Shown here: positions 490-43,465 of the stretch, piece after piece
How positions within the stretch are numbered: the first letter of the stretch is position 1
How the letters are laid out: each line of letters begins with the position of its first letter
Source of the DNA: Malassezia furfur
Taxonomy: Eukaryota
Length of the DNA: 43,465 nt
Direction: 5' to 3' (one strand)
Assembly (NCBI GenBank): GCA_052055015.1
Contig: JBQJIT010000045.1
Made by a program: the position numbers and the translations under genes
Notes under the pieces: model-generated
Databases searched by the model: none
Seen by the model: only the letters and a program-made list of their open reading frames with translations
What the model was told of the DNA's origin: nothing

Positions 490-2035
490 ATGGCGGGCGA
501 GACCCCACGCGTGCCGGCGCGTGCGCCGCACGGCGCGCACGACTCGGACACTGACGACGACGACGAGCAGGCGGGCGAGATGTTGGACCTGCTGGACATC
601 CCGTCCTCGCAGAAAGCGCGGCCCCGCGCCGTGCTCAGCCCGACCGAGGGATTATGGTAGGTGCGAAGCGTCGCGCGGCTCACACAGGATCACGGGTGTC
701 GTGCTGCTCATGGTGTTTTTGCACATCATGCCGCAGGTGTTCATCATGCTGCCCTACTACCGCGCGACGCGCTCGTTCACGTTCCAGCAGCTCCTGCGCG
801 CGCTCGTGCCCTACAACGTGCTCATTGCGTACATGTACCTCACCTACTACCTGTGCGTCACGAGCGACGCAGGCGGCGTCCCGTACGGCTGGTCACCAGA
901 CGAGGCGATGGCCGAACACGGCGTAGAGCTCACCTCGGAGCACCGCCGCTTCTGCCACAAGTGCGACGCATTCAAGCCGCCGCGCGCGCACCACTGCAAG
1001 CAGTGCAAGCGGTGTGTGTTGCGCATGGATCACCACTGCCCGTGGATCGGCAACTGCGTCGGGATCCACAACCATGCCGCCTTTATGCGCTTCTTGGTCG
1101 CAGTGAGCGTCGCAGGTGCCTATTTGCTGTCGATGATCAGCTTGCGTGTCGGCGACTGGTGGAATATGGACTGGTACTTGTCGCCGCCGTCCAACTCCGA
1201 GACGGTGATGATCGTTCTCACCTACATCATGGGCACGCCGCCGATTGCGCTCACGAGCCTCATGATGTGGTACCAGCTGTACCTGCTCACGATCAACACC
1301 ACCACCATCGAGACCCACGAACAAGACCGGGTCACACGACAGATCCGCCGCGGCCAGATCCCCTTTTTCGAGTTCCCATTCGACGTGGGTCTCTGGCGCA
1401 ACATGACCGATGTGATGGGGCCCAACATCCTGCTCTGGCTCTGGCCGTTCTCGCAGACCGAGCAGGACGGACTTTTGTACCCCGTGTCCCAACCATACCC
1501 CGAGGCCCAGTTCCTGTGGCCCCCGTACGACCGGCGCGCCAAGCAGCGCCGCCGCCGTCCTTTGCCCGAGTCGGCTTTTACCTACGGCGAAGAGCAGCTG
1601 AATCCCGACCTACAGCCTTCCCATGCGGCGGTCGAGCTTGGGCGCCGCACCCAGTACGCCGTGAACGGCTCGATCGGTGTAGACGAGGACGACTACGACG
1701 ACTACGACGACGACGGACAAGAGCACAATCGCGTGCGCATTCGCCGCGGCAGCGAAGGCATCGAAATTCGGCCGCCGCAATACAGCCGCATGCTGTACGA
1801 GATGCAGCAAGAGTACCGCCACCTGCATCCCGAAGCGTTTGCCGACGAAGCGTCCGAGCCCATCGACGCCGACGCCGATGCCGACGAACTGTCCCCCGGC
1901 ACACCCGCGCCCAAAATCGTCGACATCCAAGCGAGCGACACCACGGAATCAGAGGAAGGGATCCCGCTGGGCCATTTGGTCCGCCGCCACCTCGCCAGCA
2001 ATGCACACGGTCAGGAAGAAATGCACACTACATAA
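490..2035 (+). CDS. PFA4: DHHC palmitoyltransferase, Pfa4-like; intron 657-687 (31 nt)
   Basis: CHKC..FKPPRAHHCKQCKRCVLRMDHHCPWIGNCVG, TTIE and FPFDVG motifs. The ATG-490 frame hits TAG at 658 unless GTAGGT...CTCACACAG is spliced. Confidence 0.85.
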
Positions 2036-3018
2036 TACTGCAGTTGTCGTCGGCATCGCCGCTGAGCATACCATTTAGCCCAGCCAACTCCGGGGGCATA
2101 TCACCGAGCAACTCCTGGGGCGGGGAACCGAGCTCTTGCATTTGCGACACAAGATCCGACACACGCTTCTTGCACGCCGGGTCGGAATCATTGTAGGATT
2201 TTTCGTCGAACACGGCAAGGATGTCCCCCATGATCGCCTGCTGGTCCTTATACCGCTTCCGCTCCTCATCACTGAGCTTCTTACCCTCGTTCGATTCAAA
2301 GAAGCCGGGGAAGCGCGAGTGCATATCCTTTAGCGGCTCGTAGAGTACATCCTTGTTCATGAGGTCATCCATCATCGAGCTGAGCATCTTGGACAGCTCC
2401 GACATATCACCCCCTTCGCCATCGCCGGCATTTCCAAGCGCTTCGAGCATCTGCGCAAGGTCGGTATTTCCATCGAGACCGAGGTTGGCAAACAGGTTGC
2501 TGGGATCGTTGGCGCCTTTCGCACAGGCGTCTGCATTGGCGTCTGCATTGGACTGCTTCAGTTTGGCCATGGTCGCCTGGATCACGTCCTGGAAGCTCGC
2601 ATCCGATGATGGCGCATTAGTGGATGGCTTGTCTTCGGATGCATCCTCTTTCGCGCCTGACAACATCCGCTCAAACTGCTTCATCATCTCGTCCTCGGCC
2701 AACGTGTTCTTGTTGCCTCCCTCGGCCTTGTTATCAGGGACGGCAGGCCGCTCTGGCATGTTCTGGCCCATCTGCGCCATAAATGCCTCCATGTTCCGAG
2801 TGAGTTCCTGCACGAATTCGTCAGACAATGGGTCATCGTCCCCGTCGTCGTCGTCGTTTTTCGGCGCGGAAGCCTTCGTACTTGCAGCTGCGCTCTCCGA
2901 AGGAGTCGCAGACGCAGGCTCCTGCTGGAAATCGTCTAGGATATCTTTTGGTCAGCCATTTTCAATACATACCATCGAGATCATCGAGATCTTCCGCAGT
3001 TGGCTTGGGTGGAACCAT
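2028..3018 (-). CDS. PEX19: Peroxin-19 (PMP import receptor); intron 2945-2972 (28 nt)
   Basis: Spliced N-terminus MVPPKPTAEDLDDLDDILDDF (Pex3-binding type motif), LMNKDVLYEPLKDM, MQELGSPPQEL, and C-terminal CaaX CSIM. Confidence 0.93.
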
Positions 3019-3100
3019 CTCGCTTGTGGGGAACCTGTGTGAAACTCTTCCTCCTTACACGTGGTTTCTTTCCAGCCTCCGGCCCCCCGCACTCCTCCAC

Positions 3101-4557
3101 ATGATGGAAGACGCGCTGGTCGCGTTCGTGACCAAAGGGTCACGACGTGCACCAAAAGTCGCGCTGTCTCATAATGTACCTGGTACGTGATGCATCTCAT
3201 GTAGCCGGACGCGGTCTTGTCCTTACCGCGGACGTGGAACCCGGCGAGGTGATTCTGGAAGTACCTTCGAATGTCCTGCTCCACCCGAGTTCCTTGGCGA
3301 AACAGGGTCGACTGACCAGCGCTCCACGCAAAGCATACAGCACGGGCAAGCCATCCAAAAACACACTATCAACTCATCAGATTGTCTCCTACGCGCTCTC
3401 ACAATGGCGGTGTACTGGGCGCCCCAACTGTCCCCTTTCTCCCTTCTTGCACTCGCTGCCAACGGAATTCCCCACAGCACCGCTAACCTGGCAAGTGGAA
3501 TTCGGCCCCGACGAGAAGCTTTTGCTGAAAGCTCTCTCCTCTACTGCAAAAATTCGTGCGGATAAAGTGTTCAGAAGTTTCGAGCGCGACTGGAATCGAC
3601 TCGTCGATCTGCAGACAACGTCTCCGGACGTGCTGGAAGAAATTTGGGCATGTATGAAAACCAATACCCCTCGAAAACCACTTGTACGCACGGATCTACT
3701 CTGGGCATGGCTGTGCACCAATTCGCGTTGTGTATATATGGATTTGCACTATGAGCGGCATGAGGACAATTTTACCTTGGCGCCTTTGCTCGACATGGCC
3801 AACCATACCCCTGTCCCCTGGTTGGAGTGCAAAGTGCGCTACGACGCGCGTGGTGGCCTTGAGCTGCTTGCTCCAAACCATCCACGTCCTGACGATGCCG
3901 GTCGGATGGGCTGGCGAAAAGGTGATGAAGTATGCATCACCTATGGCGCACACGCAAATACGACGCTGCTGGCTGAGTACGGCTTCGTTCTTCCGCGTGT
4001 CCTACACCCTAATGACGAGCATTGGACGGGGAATCGATATTGCGATGTGCTTCTCGATGCGTCGGTCGAGGCACTCTTCGGAGAAGACGAAAACGGAACA
4101 TGGAAGCGCGAGCTCCTGGAAAAGGAGGGCTACTGGGCGTACGTTTCCCCATTCACACAGCGATTATTCGATGCACCCATATCCAGCGCCTGCGCATCCC
4201 TCACACCGTCTGCATACAGCGCTGCGTCTACTCTGCATGAGCGTTGACCAGCGTGCAAAACGTCCACGACTGGAGGAAGGGGAAGAGGCACCCCGGTCGC
4301 GGCAAGATGCCGAGCGTGTATGGATGCTGGCGACCCATGGCAGGACCGCCCGGATTTCACAAGCCAATGAGGAAGCAGTTCGAGCCACATTGTCTCAACT
4401 ATGTGCGACAGTTCAAAAAGATCATGAGCGTCGCCTGCAGGCGTTGGATACGCTACCGCGATCTGATTCAGAACAGATGGTGAGGCAGGTCTTGGTTGAG
4501 GAACGAACTATTGCGGAGCTGGTTCGTCAAAGTGCAGCGTGTGGAGACGAATGGTGA
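3101..4557 (+). CDS. SET-domain protein lysine methyltransferase (Rkm2/SETD4-like); introns 3183-3204 and 4139-4160 (22 nt each)
   Basis: GRGLV, WAWLCTNSRCVY, LAPLLDMANH and ITYGAH.N..LLAEYGF motifs. The second intron is required to join ORFs 3147 and 3682 (YWADYSMHPYPAPAHPS). An unspliced alternative start exists at ATG 3174. Confidence 0.8.
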
Positions 4558-5370: not shown

Positions 5371-5665
5371 GATCGTACGTCGGTGCGGAAGAGGCGTCCA
5401 GGAAAACCCGTACAATAGCTGTTGCGATCGATCTAGATCGGGCAAACCCTGCGAGTCTGGGGTTAGGCAGGCGTGGCTTTATGCGAAGACTGCCGAAATG
5501 GGCTAATTTTGACGAAACGACAGGGCAGCAGCCTGCTGGCAATAGGAATCCTGACCGTGCGACACGAGCGGCCAGCCAACATCTCCACCATACTCCCTCA
5601 TGTAAGCATCCGTAGATAAATAGACAAAAGTGGTTGTTGCATTGCAGAAAAACGAAAGCTACTAA

Positions 5666-7523
5666 CTAAGCCATGTTCGAAAGGGCGCTCAGCACGGCCT
5701 TCAGACTGGTGGCCGTGATGTCGACGTCGATACCGACGCCCCAGAATCCCGTCGCCTTGTTGGCGCCAACCTTGGCGCTCTCTTCGGGGCGCACAAGCTC
5801 GACGTACGACGCAGCCTGAGCGCGAGTCTGGCCCTTCTTCGAGTCGGCCTCGCCACCGAGCTGCATGGTATGGGGGCGCAGAGCGTGCTCACTGTATTCA
5901 CGCACGTCCGCCGAGACGCCAAAGGTCTTCTCCATGGCGTCGAGCAGAGCAGAGATGGGACCGTTACCCGTGCCCGACACCTCGTGCATTTCGCCGTCGC
6001 AAGCAATCTTGCCCGAGAAGGTGCGGTAACGCGGCGTAGAGCCGTTGGCCATGTTGCCGTTGGCCGCCGAGCCGTTCACCTGGTTTTGCGTCTCCGAGAG
6101 CGAGAACGAGCGCAGGGCATACTTGCCCTCGTTCTTGCCCAGCTCGAGGCTCGGCAGGTGGTAGTGCTGGCAGAACGCCTGCGTAATGTCCTCAATGGAC
6201 AGCTCCTTGCTGGTCTGGTCGGCAATGGCCTGGATGACCTGGTAGAAGGAGACCTGCATACGGCGGGGCAGGTCGACACCGAGGGCCTGCGTGAGCAGGT
6301 AGGCGATGCCACCCTTGCCGCTCTGGCTGTTCACACGGATCACCGCCTCGTAGGTCAGACCAAGGTCCTTCGGGTCCACGGGAAGGTACGGCACGCTCCA
6401 CACGGGGTCGCCCGCGGCGTTCCGCTTCTCCTGGGCGAGGAAGCCTTTCTTGATGGCATCCTGGTGCGAGCCGCTGAACGCGGTCATCACCAGCTCACCC
6501 GCGTACGGGTGACGCGGGTGCACAGGCAGCTCGTTGCAGCTCGTCACCACTTCCACGAGCGACGGCAGGTCCGACAGGTCGAGCGGGCCGGGCTGAACGC
6601 CCTGCGAGAACAGGTTGAGGGCGAGGGTGACGAGGTCGACGTTGCCGGTGCGCTCGCCGTTGCCAAACATGCAGCCCTCCACGCGGTCCGCACCGGCCAG
6701 CAGGCCGAGCTCGGCCGCGGCAATACCGCAGCCACGGTCGTTGTGCGGGTGCAGCGAGATCTCGATCACCTCGCGGTCGCCAATCTTACGGCCAAAGTAC
6801 TCAATCATGTCCGCGTAGTGGTTGGGGGGGCCAATCTCGACGGTGGCGGGCAGGTTGAAGATGATCTTGTTGTCCTTGGTCGCCTTGCCGTAGGCCGTGC
6901 GCACGGCCTGGCAAAGCTCCACCGCAAAGTCCGGCTCGGTCTGGGTGAACGTCTCCGGGGAGTATTCGTAGCGGAAACGGGTCCCACCGTTCTCCGGCTT
7001 GCTGTAGTGGTCCATGAGCTCAGTCACGAGCTTGGTGTGGCGCACGGCGAGCTCGACCGTCTTGGCCTGGTCGTTGCCGAACACCACTTCACGGAAGAGG
7101 GGGCTGCTTGCATTGTACATGTGGAGAATGACGTTCTTGGCGCCCTTGATGGACTCAAAGGTGCGGCGAATGAGTTCTTCGCTGGCGTGTCAGACGTGGG
7201 GAAGAGACGTACCGTGCGGGGGTCAGCACCTGGATCCAGACGCCATCCGGAATGAGACCCGACTCGATAATGTGACGCACGAAGCCGAAATCGGTGTCGC
7301 TCGCGGAGGGGAACGCCACTTCAATCTCCTGGAAGCCGACTTCCACGAGTTTCTTGAAGAAAAGGATCTTTTGCCTCTCATTCATGGGGTTGGCGAGGGC
7401 CTGGTTGCCATCACGCAGGTCTACCGACGTCCAGATCGGTGCCTTGCGCAGCACCTTGTCAGGCCATTGCCGGTCGCTGAGCTTCAGAGGCTCGTAAGGC
7501 TTATACTTCTTCCCCGGATCCAT
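5666..7523 (-). CDS. LEU4: 2-isopropylmalate synthase; intron 7182-7212 (31 nt)
   Basis: [46 protein letters not shown], and GNGPISA regulatory domain. Splicing gives [15 protein letters not shown]. An in-frame upstream ATG lies at 7553. Confidence 0.96.
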
Positions 7524-7739: not shown

Positions 7740-9868
7740 ATGCCGTTCCAGCCTCAGGACGTTGACAAGAACGCTGTTGCGACGATTCGTATGTACCATA
7801 TCATGAGCCTCTCTAACGCCAGGCATGCTCGCCGCTGATGTGGCGGCCAAGGCCAAGTCGGGTCACCCGGGTGCGCCCATGGGTCTCGCCCCGCTGGCGC
7901 ACCTGCTGTGGAGCCGGTATGTGGCGATGTGCTGACCACAGCTTCCTGCTCTGCGACCCCAAGGACTCGCACTGGCTCAACCGTGACCGCTTCGTGCTGT
8001 CGAACGGCCACGCCTGCATTCTGCAATACACCATGCTGTACCTGCTGGGCTACAAGGTGACGCTGGACGACCTGAAGCAGTTCCGCCAGCTCAACTCACT
8101 CACCCCCGGTCACCCCGAGGCCAACCACACTGACGGTATCGAGGTGACCACTGGTCCCCTCGGCCAGGGCTTCGCCAACGCCGTTGGTCTCTCGATCGCC
8201 GCCAAGAACGCCGCGGCCGAGTTCAACCGCGACGGCTTTGAGCTGTTCAACAACCACACCTACGTGTTCCTCGGTGATGGCTGTATGATGGAGGGTGTCG
8301 CGAGCGAGGCTGCCTCGCTTGCTGGCCACCTGCGTCTCAACAACCTGATCGCCTTCTACGACAACAACAAGATCAGTATCGACGGTGACGTTGCGTGCGC
8401 CTTCACCGAGGACGTCTCGGAGCGCTTCAAGGCGTACGAGTGGAACGTGCTCAACGTCGGTGACGGTGACAAGGACTTCAACGACATCTACGATGCTATC
8501 GTGAAGGCCAAGGAGTGCAAGGACAAGCCGACGCTCATCAACATCCGCACCACGATCGGTTTCGGCTCGCTGAACCAGGGCACCCACTCGACCCACGGTT
8601 CGCCGCTCAAGGACGACGACATCCGCCAGCTCAAGGAGAAGTTTGGCTTCAACCCCGACGACAAGTTCATTGTGCCTCAGGAGGTTATCGATGCATACAA
8701 GGGCTACGCCAAGCGCGGCGCTGATGCGCACGCCGAGTGGAACAAGCTGCTCGCTGCTTACGGCGAGAAGTACCCCAAGGAGAAGGCCGAGCTGGAGCGC
8801 CGTGCCGCGCACAAGCTGCCCGAGGGCTGGGAGAAGTGCCTGCCCACGTTCACACCGGAGGACAAGCCGGCGGCCTCGCGCAAGCTCTCCGAGGGCGTGC
8901 TCACCAAGCTCTCGGCGGCGCTCCCCGAGCTTCTCGGTGGTTCGGCCGACCTGACGGGCTCGAACCTCACCCGCTGGTCGGATGCCACCGACTTCCAGCC
9001 GCCCGCGACGCACCTCGGCGAGTGGAGCGGTCGCTACATCCGCTACGGTGTGCGCGAGCACGCCATGGGTGCGATCATGAACGGTCTGCACGCCTACGGT
9101 CTGCACATCCCCACGGGCGGCACCTTCCTGAACTTCGTGTCGTACGGCCTGGGTGCTGTGCGTCTCTCGGCGCTGTCCCAGTTCCAGGTGATCTGGGTCG
9201 CCACGCACGACTCGATCGGTCTCGGTGAGGACGGCCCGACGCACCAGCCTATCGAGACGGCCGCGGCGCTGCGTGCGGTGCCGAACCTCGACTTCTGGCG
9301 CCCGGCTGACGGTAACGAGGTGTCGGCCGCATACAAGGTGGCCGTCGAGTCGTACACGACCCCGTCGGTGCTCGCGCTCACCCGCCAGAACCTGCCGCAG
9401 CTCGAGGGCTCGTCGATCGAGAAGGCTGCCCGCGGTGGTTACGTGCTGATCGAGGAGTCGGACGCGGACCTGACCCTTGTGTCGACCGGCTCGGAGGTGT
9501 CCATCTGCCGTGACGCCATCAAGCTGCTCAAGGAGAAGGGCATCAAGGCGCGTCTCGTGTCGCTGCCCTGCTTCCGCGTGTTCGACCAGCAGCCGCTCGA
9601 CTACCGCCTCAAGGTGCTGCCCGACGGCCACGCGATCCTTTCCGTGGAGGCCTACAGCACCTACGGCTGGGGCCGCTACGCGCACGTGCACCACGGTATC
9701 AACCGCTTCGGTGTGTCGGCGCCTTACGACGATGCATACAAGTTCTTCAACATGACCGACTCGGCGATTGCGGAGAAGGCTGTTAACGTCGTGAACCACT
9801 TCAAGAAGATCGGCACCCCGCTCGAGTCGCCGCTCGGCCTCGAGGCCAAGTTCCTCGCGGACAAATAA
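7740..9868 (+). CDS. TKL1: Transketolase; introns 7789-7822 (34 nt) and 7917-7941 (25 nt)
   Basis: Spliced [51 protein letters not shown] and [16 protein letters not shown] motifs. Confidence 0.97.
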
Positions 9869-9917: not shown

Positions 9918-10476
9918 CTACCCACGCCGGCGCGCAGGTTTGACTGTGGCACTCTCGATGTCGCTCTTGGCCGCCTCGGCACGCTGCGCCTCAAGCTCGG
10001 GGTCTGCCGCCGCTTGCGCCTGGCGCGTCTGCTCGAGCCGCCGCTGCTCGCGCTCTTGCTGCTCGGCCAGTGCCTGGGCGTGCTCCTGCTGGCGCGCAGT
10101 TTCGAGCTGCGCCTGCGCTGCCTGTTCCCGCATCTCAATCACGCGCGCATTGTGCAGCACAATGCGCTGCCGCTCCAAGTCTTGCACCAACTCCTGGATC
10201 GTGGGGGGCTGCCTCCGCGTATGCCGCATCCATGCGTCCCACTGGATGGGAATGTCCTTGGGGTTGTAGTCGGACATGTGTCGCGACTCCTTCCATTTGA
10301 TCACGCTGCGTAAGCGGCCCACATGCACACACATACCGCCGCGTATGCCGCGGGTCCTTGGACCCATTAAGTGCAGGGAACTCGTAATAGGTATTCTCGG
10401 CTAGGTCCTTGCCCACCATGTAGCGCGCATGCCCTATCCGCAACACGCGCGACAGCGTTTTCCAGAAGGACGACAT
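9918..10476 (-). CDS. NDUFAF2: Complex I assembly factor, NDUFAF2/mimitin-like (NDUFA12 family); intron 10306-10336 (31 nt)
   Basis: VGKDLAENTYYEF...RR|VIKW...IPIQWDAWMRHTRRQPPTIQEL followed by a coiled coil. Confidence 0.8.
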
Positions 10477-11731: not shown

Positions 11732-11765
11732 CGTCTTTGTCAACCTCCACCTCGACGCCGCTGCG

Positions 11766-13641
11766 ATGGAAGGGGAGACGCGCCGCGTGCAGCTTCCGCC
11801 GCGGTCCGAATACCGCATTGAACTTGATGCCGGCGAGGCACTCTCGGTTCGGTTCGTAGCAGATCCTTCGGGACACTATGGCGATGCAGAAGTGTTTGGC
11901 GCCCCGCTGATCGGTGGGACACAGGAGCGTTGGTACACGTTTGGCAACGAGGCCAAGTTTGCCATCTCGTCGTGGGGCGGCGCCGAGATTGAGCTGGCAG
12001 GGACTGCCTCAACCGAGTACATGGCGGACGAACCATCACCCGTGTACACGTACTATACCAATCTCCATCTCAATCTCGAACGCGCTCGTATTCGTGCGCG
12101 CGAACAACTGCGTACGGACAAGAACCTCGTCCAGTCGCTCAAGGAGCAGGACGTGTCCAAGACAGAGGCAGTGCCCTCCTATGATGACCCGAATGCTCCT
12201 CCGCAAAACGAACTGTACCATGCTGCAGGACAGGGGCCTCGGCTGATGGTGGTGGGCCCCGAGTGTGCTGGGAAAACCTCGCTGATCAAATTCCTCGCAA
12301 ACTATGCGATGCGCTCGCCTGCACTCGCGAGCATTGAGGAAGGGCTTGAGGCTGAGCGAAAGGCGCAACAGGATGAAGAAGAGGCACTGTCTGATGACGA
12401 AGACGGACCGTCCGCGCGCAAAGCGACAGACGGTGAAGAGTTTAGTGAGGTGGCGGGGTGGTGGCCCATGATCCTGGCTCTCGATCCCTCGGAGGGAGCA
12501 GTGCCCGTGCCTGGGTGTCTGAGCGCCATCCCGCTGCGCCCGACTCCGGTCAACTGCCTGCCGTCTCCGTCGCCTGCCTTGCCATATGGTGTAACGCCGC
12601 AAACAACAGGCGCTCTGCCCCCTACGGTGTCCACGGCTGAGAGCGTGATGCCCTTGGTGCACTGGCTGGGCAAGCAGAATGTACGCGAGAACGAGCAGCA
12701 CACCCGTCGTGTTGTTGACTGCCTTGCGCACCAGGTCGAGAAACGTATGATTAAAGACACTCGCGCGCGCATGTCGGGTCTACTGCTCGACATGCCTGGC
12801 GTTGTGACATCCGATTCGCGTACGCGTTACTCATACATCCAATACTGTGCGCGCGCCTTCAAGGTGGACATGATCGTGGTGCTGGGTCATGAGAAGCTCA
12901 ATTTGGAACTTTCCAAAATTTTTGCTGCGGATCCTACTGGGAGCGCCATCCAGATTGTAAAAATGCCGAAATCGGGAGGGGTGCGTTTTGCTACTAACCT
13001 AGGCCGTGGATGTCGACGAAGTGTATCGCCAAAAACTACAGGACCTCCAGATCCGCTCCTACTTTTATGGAATGCAACCTGCGATCCCCCAGGACGTTGG
13101 GTCGGCCGACGGCGAGGAAGGAACAGCGCTGTACGGCGGTCGTGCGCCTTTGCCAGGACACGCCGAGCCCCTTGGTGGTGTGCCTACGCTGAATCCCTAC
13201 TCGTCGTCCATCCCGCTCGATCTCCTGAGCCTTTTCCGCGTCGGGCAAGGTACGTCTGCCCCATTCACACAGACCGCATTGCCCCATCATCGGCACTCCC
13301 TATTGGGGCTGAGCGTGTGGTGTCGGAACTTCAGGTGGTCAAGTTGGACCCCGTTAACTCGTCGAGTGATACCTCTTCGCTCCTGCACTCGATCGTGGCT
13401 CTGGTGGATGTGCCCAGCGATGTGGAATTGAATGAAGATGGTCTGCCTTCGGAAATGTCGCTGCTACGCGCAGGCGTTCTGGGATTCATCCATGTCTCCG
13501 AAATCGACACCAACCGGAAAAAGATGACCGTCTTGTCGCCCAAGCCCGGCAAGCTCCCCACAAAGACGGCATTGATTGGCGTACGTATTATGGTGAATGA
13601 ATCTATTAACATGCCAGAACTTGCACTGGCAAGATGCATGA
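11766..13641 (+). CDS. CLP1: Clp1 polynucleotide 5'-OH kinase / cleavage-polyadenylation factor; introns 12981-13002 (22), 13250-13272 (23), 13581-13617 (37)
   Basis: EYRIEL..AEVFGAPL, P-loop GPECAGKTS and LDPSEG. Splicing restores KSGG|AVD..IRSYFYG, Q|DRIAPSSALPIG and ALIG|NLHWQDA*. Confidence 0.92.
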
Positions 13642-13655
13642 AAGGTCTTCGACGC

Positions 13656-14368
13656 TTAGAAGTCGCCGCCGCCCATGTCGCCCATGTCGCCGCCGCCCAT
13701 GTCGCCGCCGCCCATGTCGTCGTTCATCTGGCCCTGCATGTAGCCGTCCTGGTAGGCGTCCATTTGCATGTGGTCTGTGTGAGAGCGGGATACGTACTCA
13801 TGCCATTTGCGAGTGCCATACCACCGAGCAGACCAGCACCGCCACCCAACAGACCGGCGCCCATGCCGCCCATACCTCCACCCATGCGGCCGCCGCCGAG
13901 GCCGCCAAAGCGGCCACCGCTCATGTAAGGCTGCTGCTGCATCATAGGCTGCTGGTATTGCTGCTGGGGGTAATACGGTTGCTGATATTGTTGTTGCGGG
14001 TAGTATTGCTGTTGCGGGTAGTACCCTTGTTGAGGATACGGCTGCTGGCCCGGGCCACCGCCCGACCCACTGCCGAATTGCCTCTGTTCTTGGCCGGGTG
14101 GCGGTCCCGAAGGAGCTGAGTACTGGTTCTTCTCATCATCGGGGTGAATCCACGTCGACCGGGGTGGGTTTGCGCGTGTGTCCACATAAAAGTGCTGCTT
14201 GTAGCTGAGTGGGTAAGCGGGGATAACGTACTTTTGATCGAACTGCTTCACCCAGCCGTCCGGGAGTGGGCGGGAGTCTTCACCCTTGGCTCCACCAGAC
14301 GTGTTCTGGCTAGTGTTGCCGTTCTTCGTGCTGTCCTGGTATGCTGGGGGGTCTTCCGGTTTGCCCAT
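13656..14368 (-). CDS. Small WW-domain protein (Wwm1-like) with Q/P/Y-rich and G/M/D-rich low-complexity tail; introns 14205-14231 (27) and 13775-13797 (23)
   Basis: Spliced WW domain LPDGWVKQFDQNYKQHFYVDTRANPPRSTWIHP; GAGLLGG repeats; tail AYQDGY..DMGGGDMGGGDMGDMGGGDF*. Confidence 0.82.
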
Positions 14369-14702: not shown

Positions 14703-15762
14703 TTATGCAGATCGGTCACCTTTCTTCTTCTGTTTGCGGGGCGGCGTCATGGGCCGGCCCATGTTGATGCCCCCATACGCGTATTTTTGCTTCTTTTCTG
14801 CAGGTTTCAAGATTTGAAAAGAGCAAAGGAGCGTCTCATCAACGCTCATCATCGCGCCTGCATTGTCGAACTCGCCACAGTAGTTCGGCGCAGAGAAAAG
14901 CGTAACCAGCTGCCGCTTCGCAAAGAACTCGTACCCATCTTCGACAACCTGATGAGCACGGCAAATGAGGTCCATGTCGTGCTTGGCCAGGAACCGTGAA
15001 ACGACATCCGGACCAAATGTGAAAGATACACCACGGTCGTTCTCCGACCAGCCCGAAATATCCTTATCGGGGTCCGACCACAGCAAATCGCACAACAGAC
15101 CCGTGTCAGGCACATCCGTGGGCCTCATGACACGGCGGATCTGCTCCATACTCTGGAGATCAGGCGAAAGACCACCGTGCATGGTAAAGATCTTCTCATC
15201 GATGATCGCAGCAATGGGCAAGCAGTTGAAGCAATCAGTAAACGTCTTCCACAGCTTGATGTTGTAGCGACGCTTGCATTCGTCGTAGAATCCGTAAATA
15301 CGGTTGATACTGGCACACTCGTGGTTGCCACGCAGAATGAAAAAGTTCTCGGGGTACTTGATCTTGTATGCCAGCAGAAGGCAGATCGTCTCCAAGCTCT
15401 GCTTGCCTCGGTCGACGTAGTCGCCCAGGAACAGGTAGTTGCTTTCCGGCGGGAATCCGCCGTATTCAAACAGACGCAGCAGGTCGTAATATTGCCCGTG
15501 AATATCGCCTAGGGGTAAGTGTTGAACCACGTACCGCAAATCTTGATCGGCGCCTCCAGCTCCAACAAGATGGGCTGGTTGATAAAGATGTCGCGCGCCG
15601 TCAGGCAGAGATACTTGATCTCATACTCCTCGAGATGCACAGGCTTTCCCGGCCGGGAGCCACGGACTGGTGGTAAGCATTGTGTGTGAGAGCGAACATA
15701 CCTTCGAGGAGCCGGTCGATGATATTGTCTATGTCGACCTCGGCAGGCTGGTTGTCCGCCAT
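14703..15762 (-). CDS. GLC7: Protein phosphatase 1 catalytic subunit; introns 15667-15701 (35) and 15509-15534 (26), plus a 5'-UTR intron at 15781-15896
   Basis: [45 protein letters not shown], and C-terminal TPPR phosphosite. Confidence 0.98.
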
Positions 15763-27222: not shown

Positions 27223-27260
27223 GGCACGGGGAAGGACACAGACACCTCCACATTACGAAG

Positions 27261-32643: not shown

Positions 32644-32645
32644 CG

Positions 32646-34475: not shown

Positions 34476-35845
34476 ATGGCGTGGACGACGCCGGCGTACA
34501 CTGTGCAGCAGGATGCACAGGCCGTGCGTGTGCGCATCGAGTGCGCGGAAAGCAATGTACGTGGTAGACTCACAAAGGCGGACACAGCCCGCGCTGCAGC
34601 AGATGGTACGACGTTCGGCTGCTTCGTCGATCCACTCTACCTGCCGTACGTGAGAGTGCTCAGACAGCCTGAAATTCCCAGAGCCCGTGGGCGCCCTGGA
34701 AGTGATTGTGCCGCTCGACGCATCGAGCAGCGGCGAAAGTTATACTTACGATGCAACTCAGCGGACACTTGAGGTCAAGCTGACCAAGGCCGTGCCAGGC
34801 ACCCACTTCCCTGGGTTGGAAGAACTCCGACCGCAGCTCCTGTCGGATGTCGAAATGCATGCGTTCGAACGCGATGCAGAGCGGATGCAGCACGAGGAGC
34901 AGACAACAAGCACGGAGAGCACCTCGTCAGGACCCACCACAAATGCATCCAAGCCAACGTACCCTGTCGGCCTGCTGTGTCAGCCCCTGAATTCCAAAGC
35001 GTACGAAGACGTCGTCGCAGGTGGACGTGTCCCCTACCTGGACGTGGTAGATCCCCAGCATACCTCACCTGCCGACCGTCTTCGTGTTGCTCTCCGCCTA
35101 GAATGCGAAAAATGGGACGAGGGGATGTACCTGTATGTGCGCATCCTAACACAGTGATGCCACGGTGGATTTCGACGAGCAAGTCGCCGAACTCTTGCAC
35201 ATGCCCCTGCGCCTTGCTACGACTCACCCAAACATTGCATCAGGCCCACTTCCGAATGACGACCGCGCGCTGCTGTTCCTTGCTCAGCTCCTCTACGCTT
35301 ACCTGTACGAAGATCGTATGTCGCTGCACGATCCTACGCCCGAGTCGGCCTGGACGGTGATCAAGCTCACGCGCTGTCTTGCATGCTGGACAGACCCACT
35401 GGAAGGTACAGGTGACCTGCATCACACACTCTGTGCCTCCTTCCGGCGCACATTGACCTATCCATTGTACCGCAGCCTCGCGGCGTGTGCGCAAATCTGC
35501 CGAGATGCTACAGAACTCCTTTCCGAGTCACCACGCGATCGTATCCTGCATATACTGCACGCACTCGATGCCTGGTTTGCTCTAGCACCGACCGGCACTG
35601 GCCTTGCCGAGCAGACCACCACCGTGCTGTCGGTCGTGTGGGACCAGTGGATTGCGCCGCTCTCCACATGGGTCGCGCACGGAGCCACAGATGCGCACTT
35701 TGCGCAGCTGCGTGAGGCCTTTGCACAGGTCACATTCACGCCTGAGGTGCTCTCCGAGATTGAAATGCCAGGTGACTGGGACCTTGCCGCGCTGAACGCC
35801 GCGGCCGCCGAGGCCCGTGCGGAGGGCGAAGGCGCATTTGTGTAG
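34476..35845 (+). CDS. SHQ1: Shq1 H/ACA RNP assembly chaperone (CS + SHQ1 domains); introns 34557-34577 (21), 34646-34667 (22), 35133-35154 (22)
   Basis: TP.Y.V.QD, P.YLP|LKFP, LTKAVPGTHFPGL, KWDEGMYL|D, LYAYLYEDR...D.TPESAWTV.KL and RRTLTYPLYRS motifs. Confidence 0.9.
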
Positions 35846-35858
35846 TTTCTTCGTATGC

Positions 35859-37148
35859 ATGCTACCTCCACCTGCGCGGAAGCGTGCAGCGTCCAACGAT
35901 GCGCGCATCCTACAGCGACCGCGCGCTGAAGACGTGCGGCTCCCGGTGGTACTTGAGTACCACCGTAACATTGCACGGGCGACGGCCGTGGTGTGGGATG
36001 CAACGGAGCCCGTGCGGTGTGACGTCGCCCAAGGTACATTAACACTGCGTGCCGGCGAAGCATGCAATGTCCTGCCACTCGACTGGCCGCTGGTAGACGG
36101 CGTATACACAGGTGAGGAGCAGGACGGTGCACAGGTTGTCACGCTTCCTGCCCACACCTCGCCGCCGTTCGCGCTTGTACCACAGTCGCCGTGGCTGCAG
36201 TTCGCGTCGGAGCAGACACCGGTTCTGGCCTTGGCGTGCGCTGCGTGCGGCAGCACATTGATGCAATGCAGCGGCGCAGCGACATTGCGTGCTCTTCCTT
36301 CCGAAAACTGGGAAGAGCTCGTGGATGCGTGGATGTGCCATGGTGACCAGCGCTTGAATGCGAGTGTCGTTCAAGGACGTGCGGATGTCGAGCCATCACG
36401 CACGCCGGAGCTCGACCAGATTTGGGTTGGTTCACTGCTGTTGCGCATGAATAGCGCGCAGCTGATGCATGTGCACATTGCAGATGCCAAGATACCCGGG
36501 CCATGGGAGGTACGTTCCGGGGGGGTATTCCCACGGACCCGCAGAAAGCTCGCACTGGAAACCCACCGTGCGCGGCTGATACTAGGGTCCTAGATTTTGC
36601 ATTCCACATACGCCGCGGCGCAGAAGCCCCCCTGCGCCGTGGCCACAATGAATGCGACACTAACGCAGGGCGACGCATTCCCCGCTTCCTGTTCCCAGTG
36701 CTCAGCAGCGCTCGGGGCCGTGCCAGTCCGCGATGCGCCGAGCGCCGCGCAGCTGCTGCAGACGAGTGTGGTACCGGTGCCACGCACACTGTCCTACACG
36801 AACTATTTCTCTGAGATCCTTGCCAACTATCTGGTGGAACAGGCTGACCGGCACGCCGTACACCACTTCCTCATCCAGGCACTTGGTGCCGAACCCCAGC
36901 CCCGCCTCCTCGTCTGGGTCTTCCAGCCGATCGTCGAGGTGTGCACCACCCAGCGGATGGCCGTATGCAAAATTCTGTACCATACGAGCACGGCCCCCCC
37001 GCAGGTGCCCTACCACCCCCTCACGCTGCCGGCGGCGCAGTGCGATCTGCTCGCGCAACTGCTCATCGAGAGCAACGCACTGTACCCTGCGGCGCGCAAA
37101 AAACTCGCGCAATGGCATGTAGGATTTTTGCTGCGTACCCTTTTCTAA
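35859..37148 (+). CDS. IPA1: Ipa1/UBE3D-like (HECT_2) protein; 159-nt intron 36510-36668 hosting an H/ACA RNA
   Basis: CAAC..LRALPSENWEELVDAWMCH, a second CxxC after the intron, LLVWVFQP, KILY, and ESN..YP...W.VGFL. Donor GTACGT and CACTAAC-GCAG acceptor keep the frame. Confidence 0.85.
36535..36662 (+). ncRNA. Intronic box H/ACA guide RNA predicted to pseudouridylate U2 snRNA U42 (snR81-like specificity)
   Basis: Hairpin 1: GGACCC/GGGTCC lower stem with pocket GCAGAA + GATACTA, complementary to U2 UAGUAUC-[UG]-UUCU; degenerate H box AGATTT at 36592. Hairpin 2: TGCATTC/GAATGCG lower stem, pocket CACATAC + CACAAT, 12-bp upper stem; ACA at 36657-36659. Confidence 0.8.
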
Positions 37149-38095: not shown

Positions 38096-38216
38096 GGTTA
38101 GGAACAAAGCCGACCTTCGCGTCACGTGACAAAGGAAGAAAGCGGCGCGCGGCGCTCGCTTGCAAGTTGATCAAAAACGCAAGCGTACGTGGGGGGTCCA
38201 GGTGCACTAACCGCAG

Positions 38217-38771: not shown

Positions 38772-41559
38772 ATGAAGTTGTACGTGGGAGGTCTAACACA
38801 GCGCGCGCTACTTGGAGGAGAATGCGGTGGACGAGTGGCGGAAGGCATACATTAACTATCGTGGGCTGAAGAAGCTCATCAAACGCGTGCATGAGCACTA
38901 TGAGGCGCGCATTGCGCTCAAGCTGGAGGTGCCTGTGCCGAATATGCCGCAGCCGGCGCGCACACGGGCAGGAAAGATCCTGCGGCGCGGGACGAGCTTC
39001 TTTTCGAACAAGCCTGATTCACCGCCCCACTATGGGAGCATGGATGACGAGCGGTTCTCGGAACTGCCGACGGTCTCACTCGACGGCACGGGTCTCTCCT
39101 TCCCACGCAGTGTGCCGCCTGGCGCACGGAACAGCGAGGACCTTGAATCACACGGTACACATACGCCTGGCACCTCGAGCAGCGCACAGCACGGCCAGCC
39201 AAGCAAGCGATCGTCCGAGCAAGGCCCACACGTCCAGCAGCCCGGCGAGCCGGACGCCTATCCTGGCGAGACAGAGTCGACCGAGCACCCGATGCCGATC
39301 GCGTGGGTTACGCCGGACCCCAAGGCAGAGGGCGAGGACATTGACAAGCTCCTTCAGCAGCTGTTTGACTCTGAAGAGCGCAAGTTCTTCTTGGCGCTGG
39401 ACGAGGAAGTGGCGCGCATCGTGCACTTTTACGAGGAGCGCGAGCGCGAGGCGATTGAGCGCCTCTCGACGCTCGTCACGCAGCTCACCGAGCTGGCTGA
39501 GCACCGCCGCGAGTTCAAGGCACAGACGCAAAAGGTCGTGACAGGCGCAGGTCTGTCGCGCATCTTTTCCTCGGTCCCGCTCAAGATGGGCTCCGAGGAG
39601 CTGAAGCGTGCGCGGCTGAATGCGCAGCACATCCACAAGGACAAACAGCCCGAGGCGGCCGTCGATGCGGGAGACAAGCGCCGTGCGAAGGCCATGGAGC
39701 ACGTCCAGGCGCTCAACATCGACGCGCTGCAGCCCGGGACGCCTTCGTCGGAGAACCACGACGCGGCGCATATTGCGCACGACCCGGTGCAGTACCGAGC
39801 GGCGCGCAAGAAGCTGCGCACCGCCGTGATCGAGAATCACCGCGCGCTGGAGATCCTCAACAACTACCGCATCCTGAACCGGACGGGCTTCACCAAGATT
39901 TTGAAGAAGTTTGACAAGACGATGGACTCCGAGGTGCTGCAGCCCTACTACGAGACCCGTGTGGTGCCTACGCCGCTCGTGCAGTCTGAGTCGGTGCCGA
40001 AAATGCTCCGTGCAACCGAAGGTACGTGGCGCGACTCACCCAGAAATCTTCACAGTCTACTTTGAGCACGGGGACGCGAAGCGGGCGCGCGAGCTGCTGC
40101 GGGAGCCCTCGAATGTGCCGCCGGGCATGCGCGAGCACAACCACCACAAGGCTGCGTTCCGCACGGGCCTCTACCTGGGTGTCGCGCTGTGTGCCACGAT
40201 CCAGGGGCTGCGCGACGCCATGCACCCCGAGACGCGTGCGTCGATGCCCAACTGGGCGGCGGTGATGCAGCTGTACGGTGCCGAGTTTATCCCGACGATG
40301 TTCGCGCTGCTGTTTGGCCTCAATTTGGTGGGGTGGCAGACGGTGCGGATCAACACCGTGTTCATTTTCGAGTGGGATGCGCGGCATGCGCTCGAGCCTG
40401 CGCAGTACTTTGAGATGCCGGCGCTGCTGCTGCTGCTGCTGAGCATCTTTTTCTGGGTGTCGTTTGCGCAGCCGACCGCGACGTCGATTGCGCCGTCGAC
40501 GTGGCCGCTCGTGTGGCTGGTGATTGTGCTGCTGCTGCTGCTCAACCCGCTGCCGATGCTGCATCCGTCGAGCCGGCGGTGGCTTGTTGTGTCACTGTCG
40601 CGCGTATTTACGGGCGGTGTGCTGTACTCGGTCGAGTTCCGCGACTTCTTCTTGGGCGATGAGCTCAACTCGGTCATGTACTCGTTTGGCAACCTCTGGT
40701 TCCTGGGGTGCGAGTACGAAAACCACTTCCGCGTGCCCGACCAGTGCCCCATGACACGCTCGTGGTGGATCCCGGTGCTGATTGCCATCCCCGCCTTCTT
40801 GCGTTTCCTGCAATGTTTCCGGCGTTACGTGGATAGCCGCCGGATGGTGCGCATTCATCTGGTGAACGCGGGCAAGTATGCCTCCTCTGTGCTGAACGCC
40901 TTTTTCTACTTCCACTACCGCCGCCATGGCTCTGTGCGGGGCACGCCGTTTGCGCTGTGGGTGTTGTTTGCGACGATCAACTCGACGTTTACGTGCTCGT
41001 GGGACTTTATCATGGACTGGAACGTGCTGCAGCGCAACGCCAAGTACCCGCTGCTGCGTGCCAACCTGGCGTTCGCCGAGGTATGGCCGCTGTACTACGT
41101 CGCGATGGCGACGAACCTGTTTGTGCGCTTTATTTGGGTGATTTATCTGTTTGGCGGCCCTGCGTCCGTGCCGCTGCGCAGCTTTTTGGCGGCGCTGCTC
41201 GAGATGCTGCGCCGCTGGCAGTGGAACTTTATTCGTTTGGAGAACGAACACCTGGGTAACGCCGATTCGTTCAAGATTGTGCGCGACCGTACGTGTGAAC
41301 AACTGACGCAGTGCCTTTGCCCTACCCCACGACCCGGCCCAAGATGGTCCCGGTGGGTGACGACGACGACGACGACGATGACAAGGACTCGGCGCATAGC
41401 TCGTTCGGTATGCGGCCGTTCAGCATGCGCTCGGGCAACAGCCAAGCGCAGGCGAACGACGACCGCACGCACCAGACGCTGCAGCGCACGCGCGACGGCC
41501 TGCAAGAGGCACGGCGCCGCAACACGCACGAGCTCGTAGAAGATCGGGGGTATGCCTAG
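38772..41559 (+). CDS. SYG1: SPX-EXS phosphate exporter, Syg1/XPR1-like; introns 38780-38801 (22), 40022-40043 (22), 41289-41311 (23)
   Basis: Spliced MKFARYLEEN..EWRKAYINYRGLKK, LNRTGFTKILKKFDK, VEFRDFFLGDELNS, NAGKY and RRWQWNFIRLENEH..VRD|LPLPY. Confidence 0.95.
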
Positions 41560-41576
41560 GTCGTAGTTTCTGTATA

Positions 41577-43465
41577 CTAGCCGCTCCACGTCGCGCCGCC
41601 CACCTGCAGGGCCGGTACGGGGGTGTCGGAGTCGGGGCGCAGCAGTTCGCTGGGTGAGTGGGAGGAGCAACGTACTCGAGCAGGAAGGTGAGGTTCAGCC
41701 CGACGTCGTTCAGGATATGCGCGCTGCTCATCGTGATGTCCTTCGCCTCGTTGACCACCTGTGGGTCCTGGTCGACGCCGTACACCTGCCGCCGGAAGGT
41801 CGCAGCATACGCACGCACCTGGTCGGACGCCCACTGTACAAAGCCTGGGTGAGTTGCGCCACGTACCGGAAGCCATTTTGTAGTCCTTGAACGCGCTCAT
41901 GTACCAGTCGCCCGTATTTTTGATCAACGTAAAGTAGAGCATCGACAGCTCGGAAATGTACAGACTGATGTCGCCCTCGTACTTGATCTGCCGCGTGCGC
42001 CGGCGCAGCAGCTCGGTGCGCGACGCTAGCAGCAGATCGCGCGCCTCGCGGCCCTTGTCGAGGCGGAGCAGGAGCGTCGCATCGCGCACGACCGTCGCCT
42101 TGCGCTGGAACGGCGCAACGAGCTCGGCGCTGATCGCCGCGACCAGCTCACTGGCGCACGCGTTAAAGTTTTCCACGAGCAGGTACAGCGGCCCCTCGGA
42201 CACGGGCCGGTTCGCGAGGCGGTGGCGCCCCTCTTCGACGAGCGCCACAGCCTCGTCCCACTCGCGCAGCGCAATGTGTACCGCCAGGTCGTCGACGGCG
42301 CCGTTCAGCCATGGCGCAAGGCTCGCGTCCGTCTTGGGCTTCTTGTCGGCGTCGCCCGTGAGCGTGTTCGAGGAGAGGTCCATGGAGTCGCTGAGCACGG
42401 CGTCGGCACGCTTGGCGTCTGCGCGCGACTTGCGTTCGCGCTTCATCTTGTTGCCGAGGTCCTCGCCGACGCGCCGGAATGCGTTCAGCAGTGCACGCTT
42501 GTCCTGAGCCTTGTCGGTGCGGTACACATACACCTCCTTGCCGCGCTTGATCTTGAGCGCATTCTTAAGGTCCTTGCTGTCCTTGAGGTCGACCACCACA
42601 ATCTCGGACAGCCCAAAGCACTGCTCGGCGACCAGGTGGACGCGGTTGCCATAGTGGCGCTTCTTTTGCACCGCGATAAGCAGCAGGTCGTCGAGGAGGA
42701 ACAGCGCGACCGCCTGCTTCGGCTTGTATGTCGCCGCGTTCACCTCGACAAACTGGCTCGTCTCGGCGATCAGGTGCCGCCCAGGGACGTATGGCACAAA
42801 CTTTTGCGAGCCCTCGATGTTTTCCCAGAGTGCGGCGATCTGTGCTTTGTAGATCTGCTCGAGGTCCACGCGGCTGCTGCGGTGCCCCTTGACCGAGCCG
42901 AGCACCGCGTTGCTGCCCCACGGCTTCGCCGCATCCCCGGCAGGGTCCTCGATCTGGAGCTGCTGCGGGAGCTGCTTCCACTCTGATAGCAGGTCCTTGA
43001 ACTCGAGCATATCGTTCTCGAGCGTGGCGATCTCCTTGCTGATGGTGATGAACTCGGAATAGTTCTTGAACACCTGCGTCTTGAGCTGCTTCGAGGTGGT
43101 GTTCTGCATACCCGTGAGTGCATCTTGCAGGTTGCGCAGCCCTGCCTCGTTCTGCTGCTGTTGCTGCGCCGAGACAAACGCGCGCGCATCAAACGTGTCC
43201 TGCGCAAACATGCCCGCATCAATCTGGGGCGTGCGCGCAAATGTGTCCCACGACTCGCCCGCTTGCACCTGCGGCGAGGCCGCTGGAAGCGCCGGCACCG
43301 GTGCCGCGCTGGGCTGGGACGCCTGCAGGTACGCGAGCGGCTGCGGCGGCAGTGCCTTTTCCTCGGCCTCCTCGGCCTCCTCCGTGACGCTCGCAATGGG
43401 CGCGAGCATGCTCAGCCCGCCCGAGAAGGTCGGCGCGGTGGGGGCGCCGGACGCGTAGCGCATCG
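41577..43465 (-). CDS. EXO84: Exocyst subunit Exo84 (5'-truncated by the window); introns 41845-41866 (22) and 41650-41675 (26)
   Basis: Vps51-like VFKNYSEFITISKEIATLENDM, PH domain (IEGSQKFVP..PGRH..FLLDDLLLIA), and spliced MAS|GFVQWA..FRRQVY and GLNLTFLL|DELL. Confidence 0.92.
   Translation of the reverse strand, partial: MRYASGAPTAPTFSGGLSMLAPIASVTEEAEEAEEKALPPQPLAYLQASQPSAAPVPALPAASPQVQAGESWDTFARTPQIDAGMFAQDTFDARAFVSAQQQQQNEAGLRNLQDALTGMQNTTSKQLKTQVFKNYSEFITISKEIATLENDMLEFKDLLSEWKQLPQQLQIEDPAGDAAKPWGSNAVLGSVKGHRSSRVDLEQIYKAQIAALWENIEGSQKFVPYVPGRHLIAETSQFVEVNAATYKPKQAVALFLLDDLLLIAVQKKRHYGNRVHLVAEQCFGLSEIVVVDLKDSKDLKNALKIKRGKEVYVYRTDKAQDKRALLNAFRRVGEDLGNKMKRERKSRADAKRADAVLSDSMDLSSNTLTGDADKKPKTDASLAPWLNGAVDDLAVHIALREWDEAVALVEEGRHRLANRPVSEGPLYLLVENFNACASELVAAISAELVAPFQRKATVVRDATLLLRLDKGREARDLLLASRTELLRRRTRQIKYEGDISLYISELSMLYFTLIKNTGDWYMSAFKDYKMASGTWRNSPRLCTVGVRPGACVCCDLPAAGVRRRPGPTGGQRGEGHHDEQRAYPERRRAEPHLPARVRCSSHSPSELLRPDSDTPVPALQVGGATWSG

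Follow-up and report, generated by a model that had tools for sequence, protein, structure and literature searches.

Very short GT-AG introns in a 43-kb stretch of the Malassezia furfur genome: probable spliceosomal introns near the smallest workable size

The stretch of Malassezia furfur DNA analysed here (contig JBQJIT010000045.1; 43,465 bases with 0 N and about 62% G+C, hereafter the window) carries about 28 protein genes on both strands according to Pfam scans of its open reading frames, and 20 of the 28 genes, as rebuilt by us, contain a total of 42 introns, about one per kb; the other 8 are apparently intronless. Judged from the sequence, and with a probability that we put at about nine in ten, they are GT-AG spliceosomal introns of the ordinary U2 type, carried by a yeast of the M. 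furfur clade and near the smallest workable size. Nothing about their kind is unusual, whereas their size and rigidity are extreme. In a large protein collection, the closest proteins are those of M. furfur (96% for the DUF726 protein, 94% for EMC2), followed by proteins of M. psittaci, M. yamatoensis and M. japonica, which agrees with the first-pass attribution of the DNA to Malassezia.

Intron census and architecture

The median intron in this window-level sample is 23 nucleotides (nt) long and the mode is 22 nt, with 22 of the 42 introns at 23 nt or less and 32 of the 42 below 30 nt. The full set comprises two introns of 21 nt, 11 of 22 nt, nine of 23 nt, three of 24 nt, two each of 25, 26 and 27 nt, four of 31 nt and single introns of 29, 32, 34, 35, 37, 48 and 159 nt; most introns of the sample are thus shorter than 30 nt, as in a lineage with ultra-short introns. 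The total of 42 takes the two-intron version of a small gene at 17.3 kb, for which the alternative is a single 67-nt intron. A first-pass annotation of the same DNA had listed 44 introns, and its counts at the short end (2, 11 and 9 introns of 21, 22 and 23 nt) are matched exactly by the rebuilt set. The longer classes agree less closely: the rebuilt set has 18 introns of 24-37 nt (19 if an intron-like motif lying outside any reading frame at 38185-38216 is counted) where the first pass had 20, and one intron above 100 nt, that of 159 nt, where it had two, and its length bins left no place for the 48-nt intron found here. No pattern match shorter than 21 nt survived in the window, and since the strict intron pattern given below permits lengths of 18-20 nt, the 21-nt floor holds within the sample.

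All 42 introns begin with GT and end with AG, though this was a search criterion, so that the real test is whether such pairs sit exactly where reading frames and homologues need them. The donor consensus is G/GTACGT (the slash marks the junction), with G at position -1 in 26 of 42 introns, A at +3 in 34, C at +4 in 30, G at +5 in all 42 and T at +6 in 40; with a purine at +3 in 41 of 42, the donors conform to the extended GTRNGT consensus. Some motif counts refer to 39 core introns and others to all 42. Among the core introns the donors are GTACGT (20), GTATGT (7), GTGCGT (6), GTAGGT (4), GTGGGC (1) and GTTCGT (1), and none is of the U12 type ([AG]TATCC). The first-pass figure of 24 GTACGT donors in 44 introns becomes 22 of 42 overall, or 20 of the 39.

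The 3' end is a module of the form ACTNAC-NC-AG. Counted back from the junction, it reads G, A, C (37 of 42), any base, C (32), A at -6 (34), any base, T at -8 (32), C (31) and A (21). Branch motifs of the YTNAY type, which were partly built into the scoring of candidates, are represented in the 39 core introns by CTCAC (10), CTGAC (10), CTTAC (7), CTAAC (6) and other variants (6). The A of CTNAC is taken as the presumed branch point because the motif resembles that of yeast branch sites. This A lies 5 nt from the last base of the intron in 34 of 42 cases, a fixed position that was no requirement of the scoring. In each of the 22 introns that do not exceed 23 nt it falls at intron position 16, 17 or 18, which widens by one the range of 16-17 proposed beforehand for the shortest introns. 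The main class can therefore be written as 6 + (6, 7 or 8) + 9 nt, the spacer in the middle being unconstrained in sequence, and the modular plan described in the first pass, with a donor, a short spacer, a branch motif and 4 nt ending in AG, is borne out.

The absence of a polypyrimidine tract, also claimed earlier, agrees with our counts. In 34 of 42 introns the gap between the presumed branch A and the AG is just 3 nt, too short for such a tract, and pyrimidines make up 50% of the spacer (190 of 378 nt, counted over the 39 core introns). The polypyrimidine tract is dispensable in many fungi, and its absence does not bar membership in the U2 type.

A strict pattern, GT[AGT]NGT-N3-10-YTNAY-NN-AG with a total length of 18-25 nt, occurs 24 times in the window as opposed to a mean of 0.90 (standard deviation 1.07, maximum 5) in 200 dinucleotide shuffles. 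Because the introns had already been seen when this pattern was drawn up, the enrichment is partly circular. The strand asymmetry does not depend on that order: 23 matches lie within genes in the sense orientation, all 23 of them curated introns, and one is antisense. A loose intron pattern was not enriched (80 observed as opposed to 70 in shuffles).

Support from reading frames, profiles and homologues

Only with the introns removed do 20 gene models, HECT2 among them, become intact, with coding sequences that are multiples of 3 and free of internal stops, and 24 of the 42 introns have an independent comparator, that is, either Pfam coordinates that run on across the junction or a gapless alignment with homologues. 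Comparators are available for both 21-nt introns, for 9 of the 11 of 22 nt and for 4 of the 9 of 23 nt. Pfam was run on the translation of each exon separately, and homologues were aligned to both spliced and read-through translations. Pfam coordinates are continuous across 15 junctions in the transketolase, LeuA, PP1, Mem_trans, Exo84, SYG1, CLP1 and SRP14 genes, and the profile position missing at each such junction corresponds to the split codon. Homologue alignments support the introns of DUF726, SHQ1, EMC2 and the SET-domain gene, where read-through would add 7-8 residues or shift the frame. These models and junctions uphold the first-pass statement that most of the introns are forced by reading frame and restore conserved motifs; of its two examples, the CLP1 intron was located at 12981-13002, its exact sequence being present once, and the SYG1 junction MK/F corresponds to the intron at 38780-38801, where the Pfam SPX match starts from its position 4 at the first complete residue of exon 2. 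Introns that have no comparator either contain a stop or, on read-through, give downstream codon scores of -0.37 to -1.68 bits per codon. For stop-free introns whose length is not a multiple of 3, the spliced frame outscores read-through downstream in every case. The individual introns are listed in Table 1.

Table 1. The 42 introns of the rebuilt genes, with the observation that bears on each. Positions are those of the window; codon scores are in bits per codon; ranges after Pfam names are profile positions; a slash marks the splice junction.
Position	Strand	Length (nt)	Gene	Observation
657..687	+	31	DHHC palmitoyltransferase	In-intron stop on read-through; links ATG exon to DHHC frame; no comparator
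2925..2972	-	48	Pex19	After codon 4; intact model, stop inside; no comparator
3183..3204	+	22	SET-domain gene	Spliced ..NVP/AGRGL.. aligns across site in homologues reaching it
4139..4160	+	22	SET-domain gene	Gapless in 8/10 homologues; SET and Rubis-subs-bind in different frames
7182..7212	-	31	Isopropylmalate synthase (LeuA)	HMGL-like 2-68 plus 5 residues / 76-260 from residue 2; continuous
7789..7822	+	34	Transketolase	Exon 2 begins exactly at Transketolase_N position 11
7917..7941	+	25	Transketolase	Transketolase_N 11-40 fills exon 2; 43-334 from residue 2 of exon 3
10306..10336	-	31	NDUFA12-like	Pfam NDUFA12 position 28 on residue 6 of exon 2; downstream codon score -0.73 read-through, +0.24 spliced
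12981..13002	+	22	CLP1	CLP1_P match ends at last residue of exon 1
13250..13272	+	23	CLP1	Pfam Clp1 begins at residue 3 of exon 3; frame restored jointly with the 22-nt intron
13581..13617	+	37	CLP1	Clp1 match (to 107 of 113) ends at last residue of exon 3
13775..13797	-	23	WW-domain gene	Strict motif; codon score -1.49 read-through, +0.83 spliced; no comparator
14205..14231	-	27	WW-domain gene	In-frame, stop-free, inside WW domain; probable intron only
15509..15534	-	26	PP1 phosphatase	STPPase_N to 48/48 plus 6 residues / Metallophos position 8 on residue 1 of next exon
15667..15701	-	35	PP1 phosphatase	STPPase_N position 13 on residue 2 of exon 2
16395..16418	-	24	EMC2	In-frame, stop-free; 8 read-through residues missing from 12/12 homologues
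16800..16821	-	22	EMC2	Gapless in 10/12 homologues; P0138 has a 10-residue insert, P0128 a deletion
17117..17139	-	23	EMC2	5 residues lost under a 38-nt alternative are kept by 12/12 homologues
17303..17331	+	29	Small gene	Right after ATG; stop inside, intact model; no comparator
17381..17404	+	24	Small gene	Alternative is one 67-nt intron, 17385-17451; both models intact
17421..17451	+	31	Small gene	Same 67-nt alternative, 17385-17451; both models intact
17543..17565	+	23	Small gene	In-intron stop, strict motif
17608..17630	+	23	Small gene	In-intron stop, strict motif
17753..17776	-	24	Sulfotransferase-like	In-intron stop, strict motif; spliced last exon scores +0.53
18391..18413	-	23	Sulfotransferase-like	Downstream codon score -1.18 read-through, +0.50 spliced; weak Pfam match 3-33 upstream, 120-197 downstream
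23547..23571	+	25	Protein kinase	Read-through stops after 2 codons; splice joins ..LKQLI to ..SMLTVDPAKRPT..
26745..26767	-	23	Mem_trans carrier	Mem_trans 36-98 / 101-340, continuous
26961..26992	-	32	Mem_trans carrier	Donor GTGGGC; follows 12-nt micro-exon 26993-27004
27005..27027	-	23	Mem_trans carrier	Donor GTTCGT; Mem_trans 3-30 ends one residue before exon end
27341..27362	-	22	SRP14	Strict motif; downstream codon score -0.37 vs -0.01; weakest of the 22-nt set
27694..27720	-	27	SRP14	In-frame, stop-free; Pfam SRP14 position 6 on residue 1 of exon 2; probable; PDB alignments start just beyond site
28440..28461	+	22	DUF726	Gapless in 14/17 homologues; two homologues carry an 8-residue insert; M. 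furfur model begins just after site
30034..30054	+	21	DUF726	In-frame, stop-free; exact 7-residue insert missing from 18/19 homologues
34557..34577	+	21	SHQ1	In-frame, stop-free; 7 residues missing from 4/4 homologues covering site
34646..34667	+	22	SHQ1	Branch CTCAG; gapless in 4/5 homologues, P0122 having an 8-residue insert; tblastn segments break at 34646 and 34669
35133..35154	+	22	SHQ1	Gapless in 5/5 homologues; tblastn segments break at 35133 and 35156
36510..36668	+	159	HECT_2 (UBE3D-like)	In frame, one stop inside; ends in CACTAACGCAG
38780..38801	+	22	SYG1	MK/F junction; SPX position 4 on residue 1 of exon 2, after 2 codons and a split codon
40022..40043	+	22	SYG1	SPX and EXS in different frames; codon score -0.68 read-through, +0.55 spliced
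41289..41311	+	23	SYG1	Strict motif, both frames open; codon score -0.76 read-through, +0.36 spliced
41650..41675	-	26	Exo84	Downstream codon score -0.84 read-through, +0.27 spliced
41845..41866	-	22	Exo84	Exo84_C 2-155 to last residue of exon 1; 157-205 from residue 1 of exon 2

Gene models were built from a Pfam scan of all open frames of at least 90 codons on both strands, followed by a codon table trained on the Pfam-confirmed coding stretches (with a G+C of 82% at the third position of codons), a simple dynamic-programming gene finder and hand curation. When introns of up to 400 nt were permitted, the gene finder fused adjacent genes, and a relaxed version added spurious in-frame 'introns' in genes of low codon bias, which is why the introns were curated by hand; several GT...AG stretches of a length divisible by 3 in the GYF, kinase and WW genes were discarded as spurious output of this relaxed version. 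The region 2001-6000 has 55% G+C as opposed to 60-71% elsewhere in the window, and the SET gene located there scores negative with the window-trained codon table, so that codon-based gene finding misses it. A tRNA scan of the window gave no matches, and a metagenome scan with transketolase returned 80 loci with a top identity of 69-71% and no near Malassezia relative.

The Mem_trans carrier gene contains a micro-exon of 12 nt, or 4 codons (26993-27004, minus strand), between introns of 23 and 32 nt. Together, the last residue of exon 1 and the four residues of the micro-exon (32-35) account for Mem_trans positions 31-35, and the next exon starts at position 36. In the WW-domain gene, reading through 14205..14231 splits the WW motif in two with 9 additional residues, no Pfam WW match is found in the read-through translation, and the match to PDB breaks there. 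The product of the kinase splice, ..LKQLI joined to ..SMLTVDPAKRPT.., has what we take to be the usual end of a kinase domain. The 48-nt intron of Pex19 is the least typical of the set, with its branch motif 27 nt from the 3' end. A small gene at 17300-17678 (plus strand) encodes 78-82 residues in 5 or 6 exons, the first coding exon being the ATG alone; its version with introns of 24 and 31 nt leaves a 16-nt micro-exon at 17405-17420. In the CLP1 region (11583-13925, plus strand), one frame stays open for 781 codons, and the gene exits and re-enters this frame via its 22-nt and 23-nt introns; long open frames in G+C-rich DNA can hide such pairs of tiny introns.

The HECT_2 match of Pfam picks up again at 36672, after the 159-nt intron, and the M. 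japonica model implies an intron of 243 nt. That model (P0123, 760 amino acids) joins SHQ1 to the adjacent HECT_2 gene (34476-37148, plus strand in the window) and omits the part that corresponds to a second CxxC motif in the window (CSQC, at about 36669-36752); the fusion is probably an annotation merge.

Five further candidates were rejected. Removal of 2945-2972 (28 nt) from Pex19 results in 9 internal stops; a 38-nt version of the EMC2 intron, 17102-17139, would delete the 5 residues that homologues retain; 27246-27362 (117 nt) would fuse SRP14 with the adjacent gene; the conserved C-terminus requires the full frame at 30860-30879 (20 nt); and removal of 39608-39627 (20 nt) shifts the frame within a stretch that matches Pfam SPX unbroken.

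Outside the 42, a 32-nt intron-like motif, GTACGT...CACTAACCGCAG, lies at 38185..38216 (plus strand) in the 840-nt gap between mS15 and SYG1. A six-frame view reveals no convincing coding frame around it, and it may be an intron in the 5' untranslated region of SYG1 or part of a non-coding transcript. Convergent gene pairs of the window end on top of one another (sites 2028-2035, 4555-4560, 20058-20061, 32641-32648 and 37145-37148): the coding ends of DHHC and Pex19 overlap by 8 nt (2028-2035), those of SLX1/SYO1 and of HECT2/mS15 overlap by 4 nt, those of SET and TLC abut, and those of GH18 and WD40 lie 2 nt apart, the stop codons having been checked. The 3' untranslated regions of these pairs must therefore overlap on opposite strands.

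Competing explanations

Several points weigh against accepting the whole set as spliceosomal introns of this size. The evidence comes from DNA, from protein and profile comparison and from published papers, and a sample of 43 kb is too small to fix a genome-wide mode or floor. For 18 of the 42 introns, including 5 of the 9 of 23 nt and 2 of the 11 of 22 nt, only reading frame, codon usage and motif can be cited. Five short introns are free of stops and divisible by 3 in length, so partial retention is possible without breaking the protein. HECT2 and the small gene at 17.3 kb each admit alternative introns, and in HECT2 we prefer the 159-nt version over alternatives of 84 and 243 nt. Finally, the universality of the branch motif is partly built in because the motif was used in scoring candidates. 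The 18 introns that have no comparator and the five stop-free ones also speak for the view that a sizeable share of the shortest candidates are modelling artefacts or mostly retained, the true lengths being longer and the floor higher. This view bears chiefly on in-frame stop-free and C-terminal candidates, and it can further appeal to the public M. furfur model P0001, which translates straight across a 21-nt site. We consider it improbable: 4 of the 5 in-frame stop-free introns have a comparator that favours excision, both 21-nt introns and 9 of the 11 of 22 nt have comparator support, all 23 sense matches to the strict pattern fall at points where a gap against homologues or a change of frame calls for an intron, and the read-through models are truncated or frameshifted elsewhere too, which points to annotation error. 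That the frame breaks are assembly indels was a concern named beforehand; this view, like one of sequencing indels or decayed genes, had nothing found in its favour and can be regarded as refuted. The breaks are GT...AG inserts of 21-159 nt with conserved internal motifs and not indels of 1-2 nt, and their excision restores profile-continuous, full-length conserved proteins in 20 genes.

If these are U2-type introns near the lower size limit, each would be read as a single unit, by intron definition. The 5' site would be recognised by U1 and later by U6, and CTNAC by a branch-binding protein and later by U2; the 3' site would be the first AG past the branch, chosen without a polypyrimidine tract. 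The floor of 21 nt, or 6 + 6 + 9 nt, would then mark how short the spacer can become before the 5' site no longer reaches the branch A. The 12-nt exon between introns of 23 and 32 nt in the Mem_trans gene favours intron over exon definition. The same exon has a place in a further proposal, that the tiny introns require a specifically altered spliceosome, whether through independence of the U2AF large subunit, a shorter upstream contact of SF3a/b, trimmed U1 accessories or a U1 5' end matching GUACGU. Canonical U1, SF1/U2AF and SF3 footprints are too large to sit side by side on 22 nt, and a geometry with 6-8 nt from the 5' site to the branch motif and 3 nt from the branch A to the AG makes an altered spliceosome a reasonable thing to infer on steric grounds; yet a tight fit does not by itself imply a changed list of spliceosome parts. 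Likewise, 30 of 42 donors carry a C at +4, a mismatch to the canonical 5' end of U1, but GTACGT donors are also common in fungi with introns of normal size. No small nuclear RNA (0 Rfam matches) and no recognisable splicing factor gene lies in the window. In humans, SPF45 takes the place of U2AF on a subset of short introns (10.1101/784868), whereas Stentor splices introns of 15-16 nt with core U1, nearly all U2 proteins and U2AF1/U2AF2 conserved (PMC9505925). On balance we think an obligatory change in the spliceosome possible but doubtful.

We are similarly tentative about a broader reading, in which the M. furfur lineage would have its whole intron set at a 22-nt mode, with the branch A fixed 5 nt from the 3' junction, exons of 12-16 nt and sequential or altered early assembly. 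Because the 22-nt geometry cannot hold the textbook contacts of U1 together with those of the branch-binding protein, U2AF and SF3, assembly would in that case be either sequential or carried out with altered parts, candidates for which are the lack of a working U2AF large subunit, a shortened upstream SF3 and a U1 5' end matched to GUACGU.

Other short-intron lineages, annotation and significance

Malassezia genes have been described in a review as containing very short introns (PMC7426719). M. sympodialis has 5350 introns in 7.79 Mb with a mean length of 30 bp, 99% of them supported by RNA sequencing (PMC5389616), and M. restricta has 2150, which average 37.2 with a median of 30 (PMC9241646), its annotation having used minimum intron settings of 20 and then 15 (PMC6473144). 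A large fungal study treats M. sympodialis as intron-poor, and its Malassezia passages are silent on length (PMC8476143). Both species share with the window the genus and very short GT-AG introns, and the intron density of M. sympodialis is also similar (42 in 43.5 kb here), but their mean or median of 30 differs from the window median of 23 and mode of 22. In the passages on introns of the M. sympodialis and M. restricta papers, neither a length mode or floor nor a branch position or 3' module is stated; a histogram of lengths for M. sympodialis (PMC5389616, Supplementary Figure S8) may already show a similar mode. Full-text searches, which did not extend to subscription papers, turned up no description of intron length mode, floor, branch position or spliceosome in Malassezia. 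That Malassezia introns are very short is thus known, and what we did not find in print is their architecture, the 22-nt mode, the 21-nt floor and the annotation errors that result.

Ciliate introns are A+T-rich with weak branch signals, and in Microsporidia the branch motif also adjoins the 3' AG and the spliceosome is reduced. The comparison with ciliates drawn in the first pass holds, as the window lengths fall in the range of both ciliates and myxozoans: introns average 25 nt in Paramecium (PMC8997360) and measure 15-16 nt in Stentor, and some myxozoans have a median of 22 bp (PMC13644364). Ciliates resemble the window in length class and GT-AG ends, and their spliceosome is largely canonical in composition (PMC9505925, PMC8997360), the changes conjectured for Stentor being local, near the spliceosome active site only (PMC9505925); they differ in being an independent lineage, whereas the window has 62% G+C and a strong CTNAC at a fixed distance from the 3' end. 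Myxozoans and dicyemids, with medians of 22-27 bp that are close to that of the window, are likewise cases of independent extreme shortening, but their splice-site motifs are reduced (PMC13644364), whereas those of the window are strong and rigid. Microsporidia are related to fungi and have compact genomes with introns below 30 bp; they keep few introns, which are spliced inefficiently (PMC13644364), as opposed to 20 of 28 genes with introns here. The human introns that depend on SPF45 are also short, with truncated polypyrimidine tracts, and are spliced without the usual recognition of the 3' site by U2AF, but the model intron used there measures 56 nt, and only a small fraction of human introns belongs to this class (10.1101/784868). 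The passage that in 2026 named lineages with introns below 30 bp lists ciliates, Microsporidia, Dicyemida and Myxozoa, and leaves Malassezia unnamed (PMC13644364).

Public protein models of close relatives look faulty at several of these introns. The M. furfur DUF726 model P0001 is truncated at its N-terminus, starting just past the 22-nt intron, and translates across the 21-nt site, where it alone among 19 homologues retains the 7 residues; the M. furfur EMC2 model is without two blocks of residues. The closest representative of the SET protein, P0173, diverges upstream of 3183..3204 as though that intron had been missed, and enters a wrong frame at 4139..4160. In models of M. psittaci, M. 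caprae and M. vespertilionis, inserts of 8-10 residues lie exactly at intron sites, and the inserts of relatives at the same junctions (8, 8, 8 and 10 residues in P0002, P0013, P0122 and P0138) would fit orthologous introns of 24-30 nt that annotators read through. Public protein models of close relatives thus appear, on sequence comparison, to miss these introns, and default minimum intron lengths in gene finders are a likely cause of the faulty models. Proteins from assembled public runs (P0032, P0036, P0127 and others) also read through the intron sites, as open reading frames on unspliced sequence would, and hence provide no evidence of splicing.

The introns of the window come close to the smallest on record, and introns of this kind are often overlooked when genes are annotated. 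A rigid intron of 21-23 nt whose branch lies 5 nt before the 3' site approaches what is physically possible. Agrobacterium transformation has been reported for M. furfur and M. sympodialis (PMC5654937), and in a yeast that, unlike ciliates and myxozoans, can be grown and transformed, the minimal spacer and the branch-to-AG distance are directly testable. The window would add a further independent case of ultra-short introns, in a free-living basidiomycete, and if the reading of a 22-nt mode with altered assembly is true, M. furfur would be the first practical genetic model for the splicing of tiny introns.

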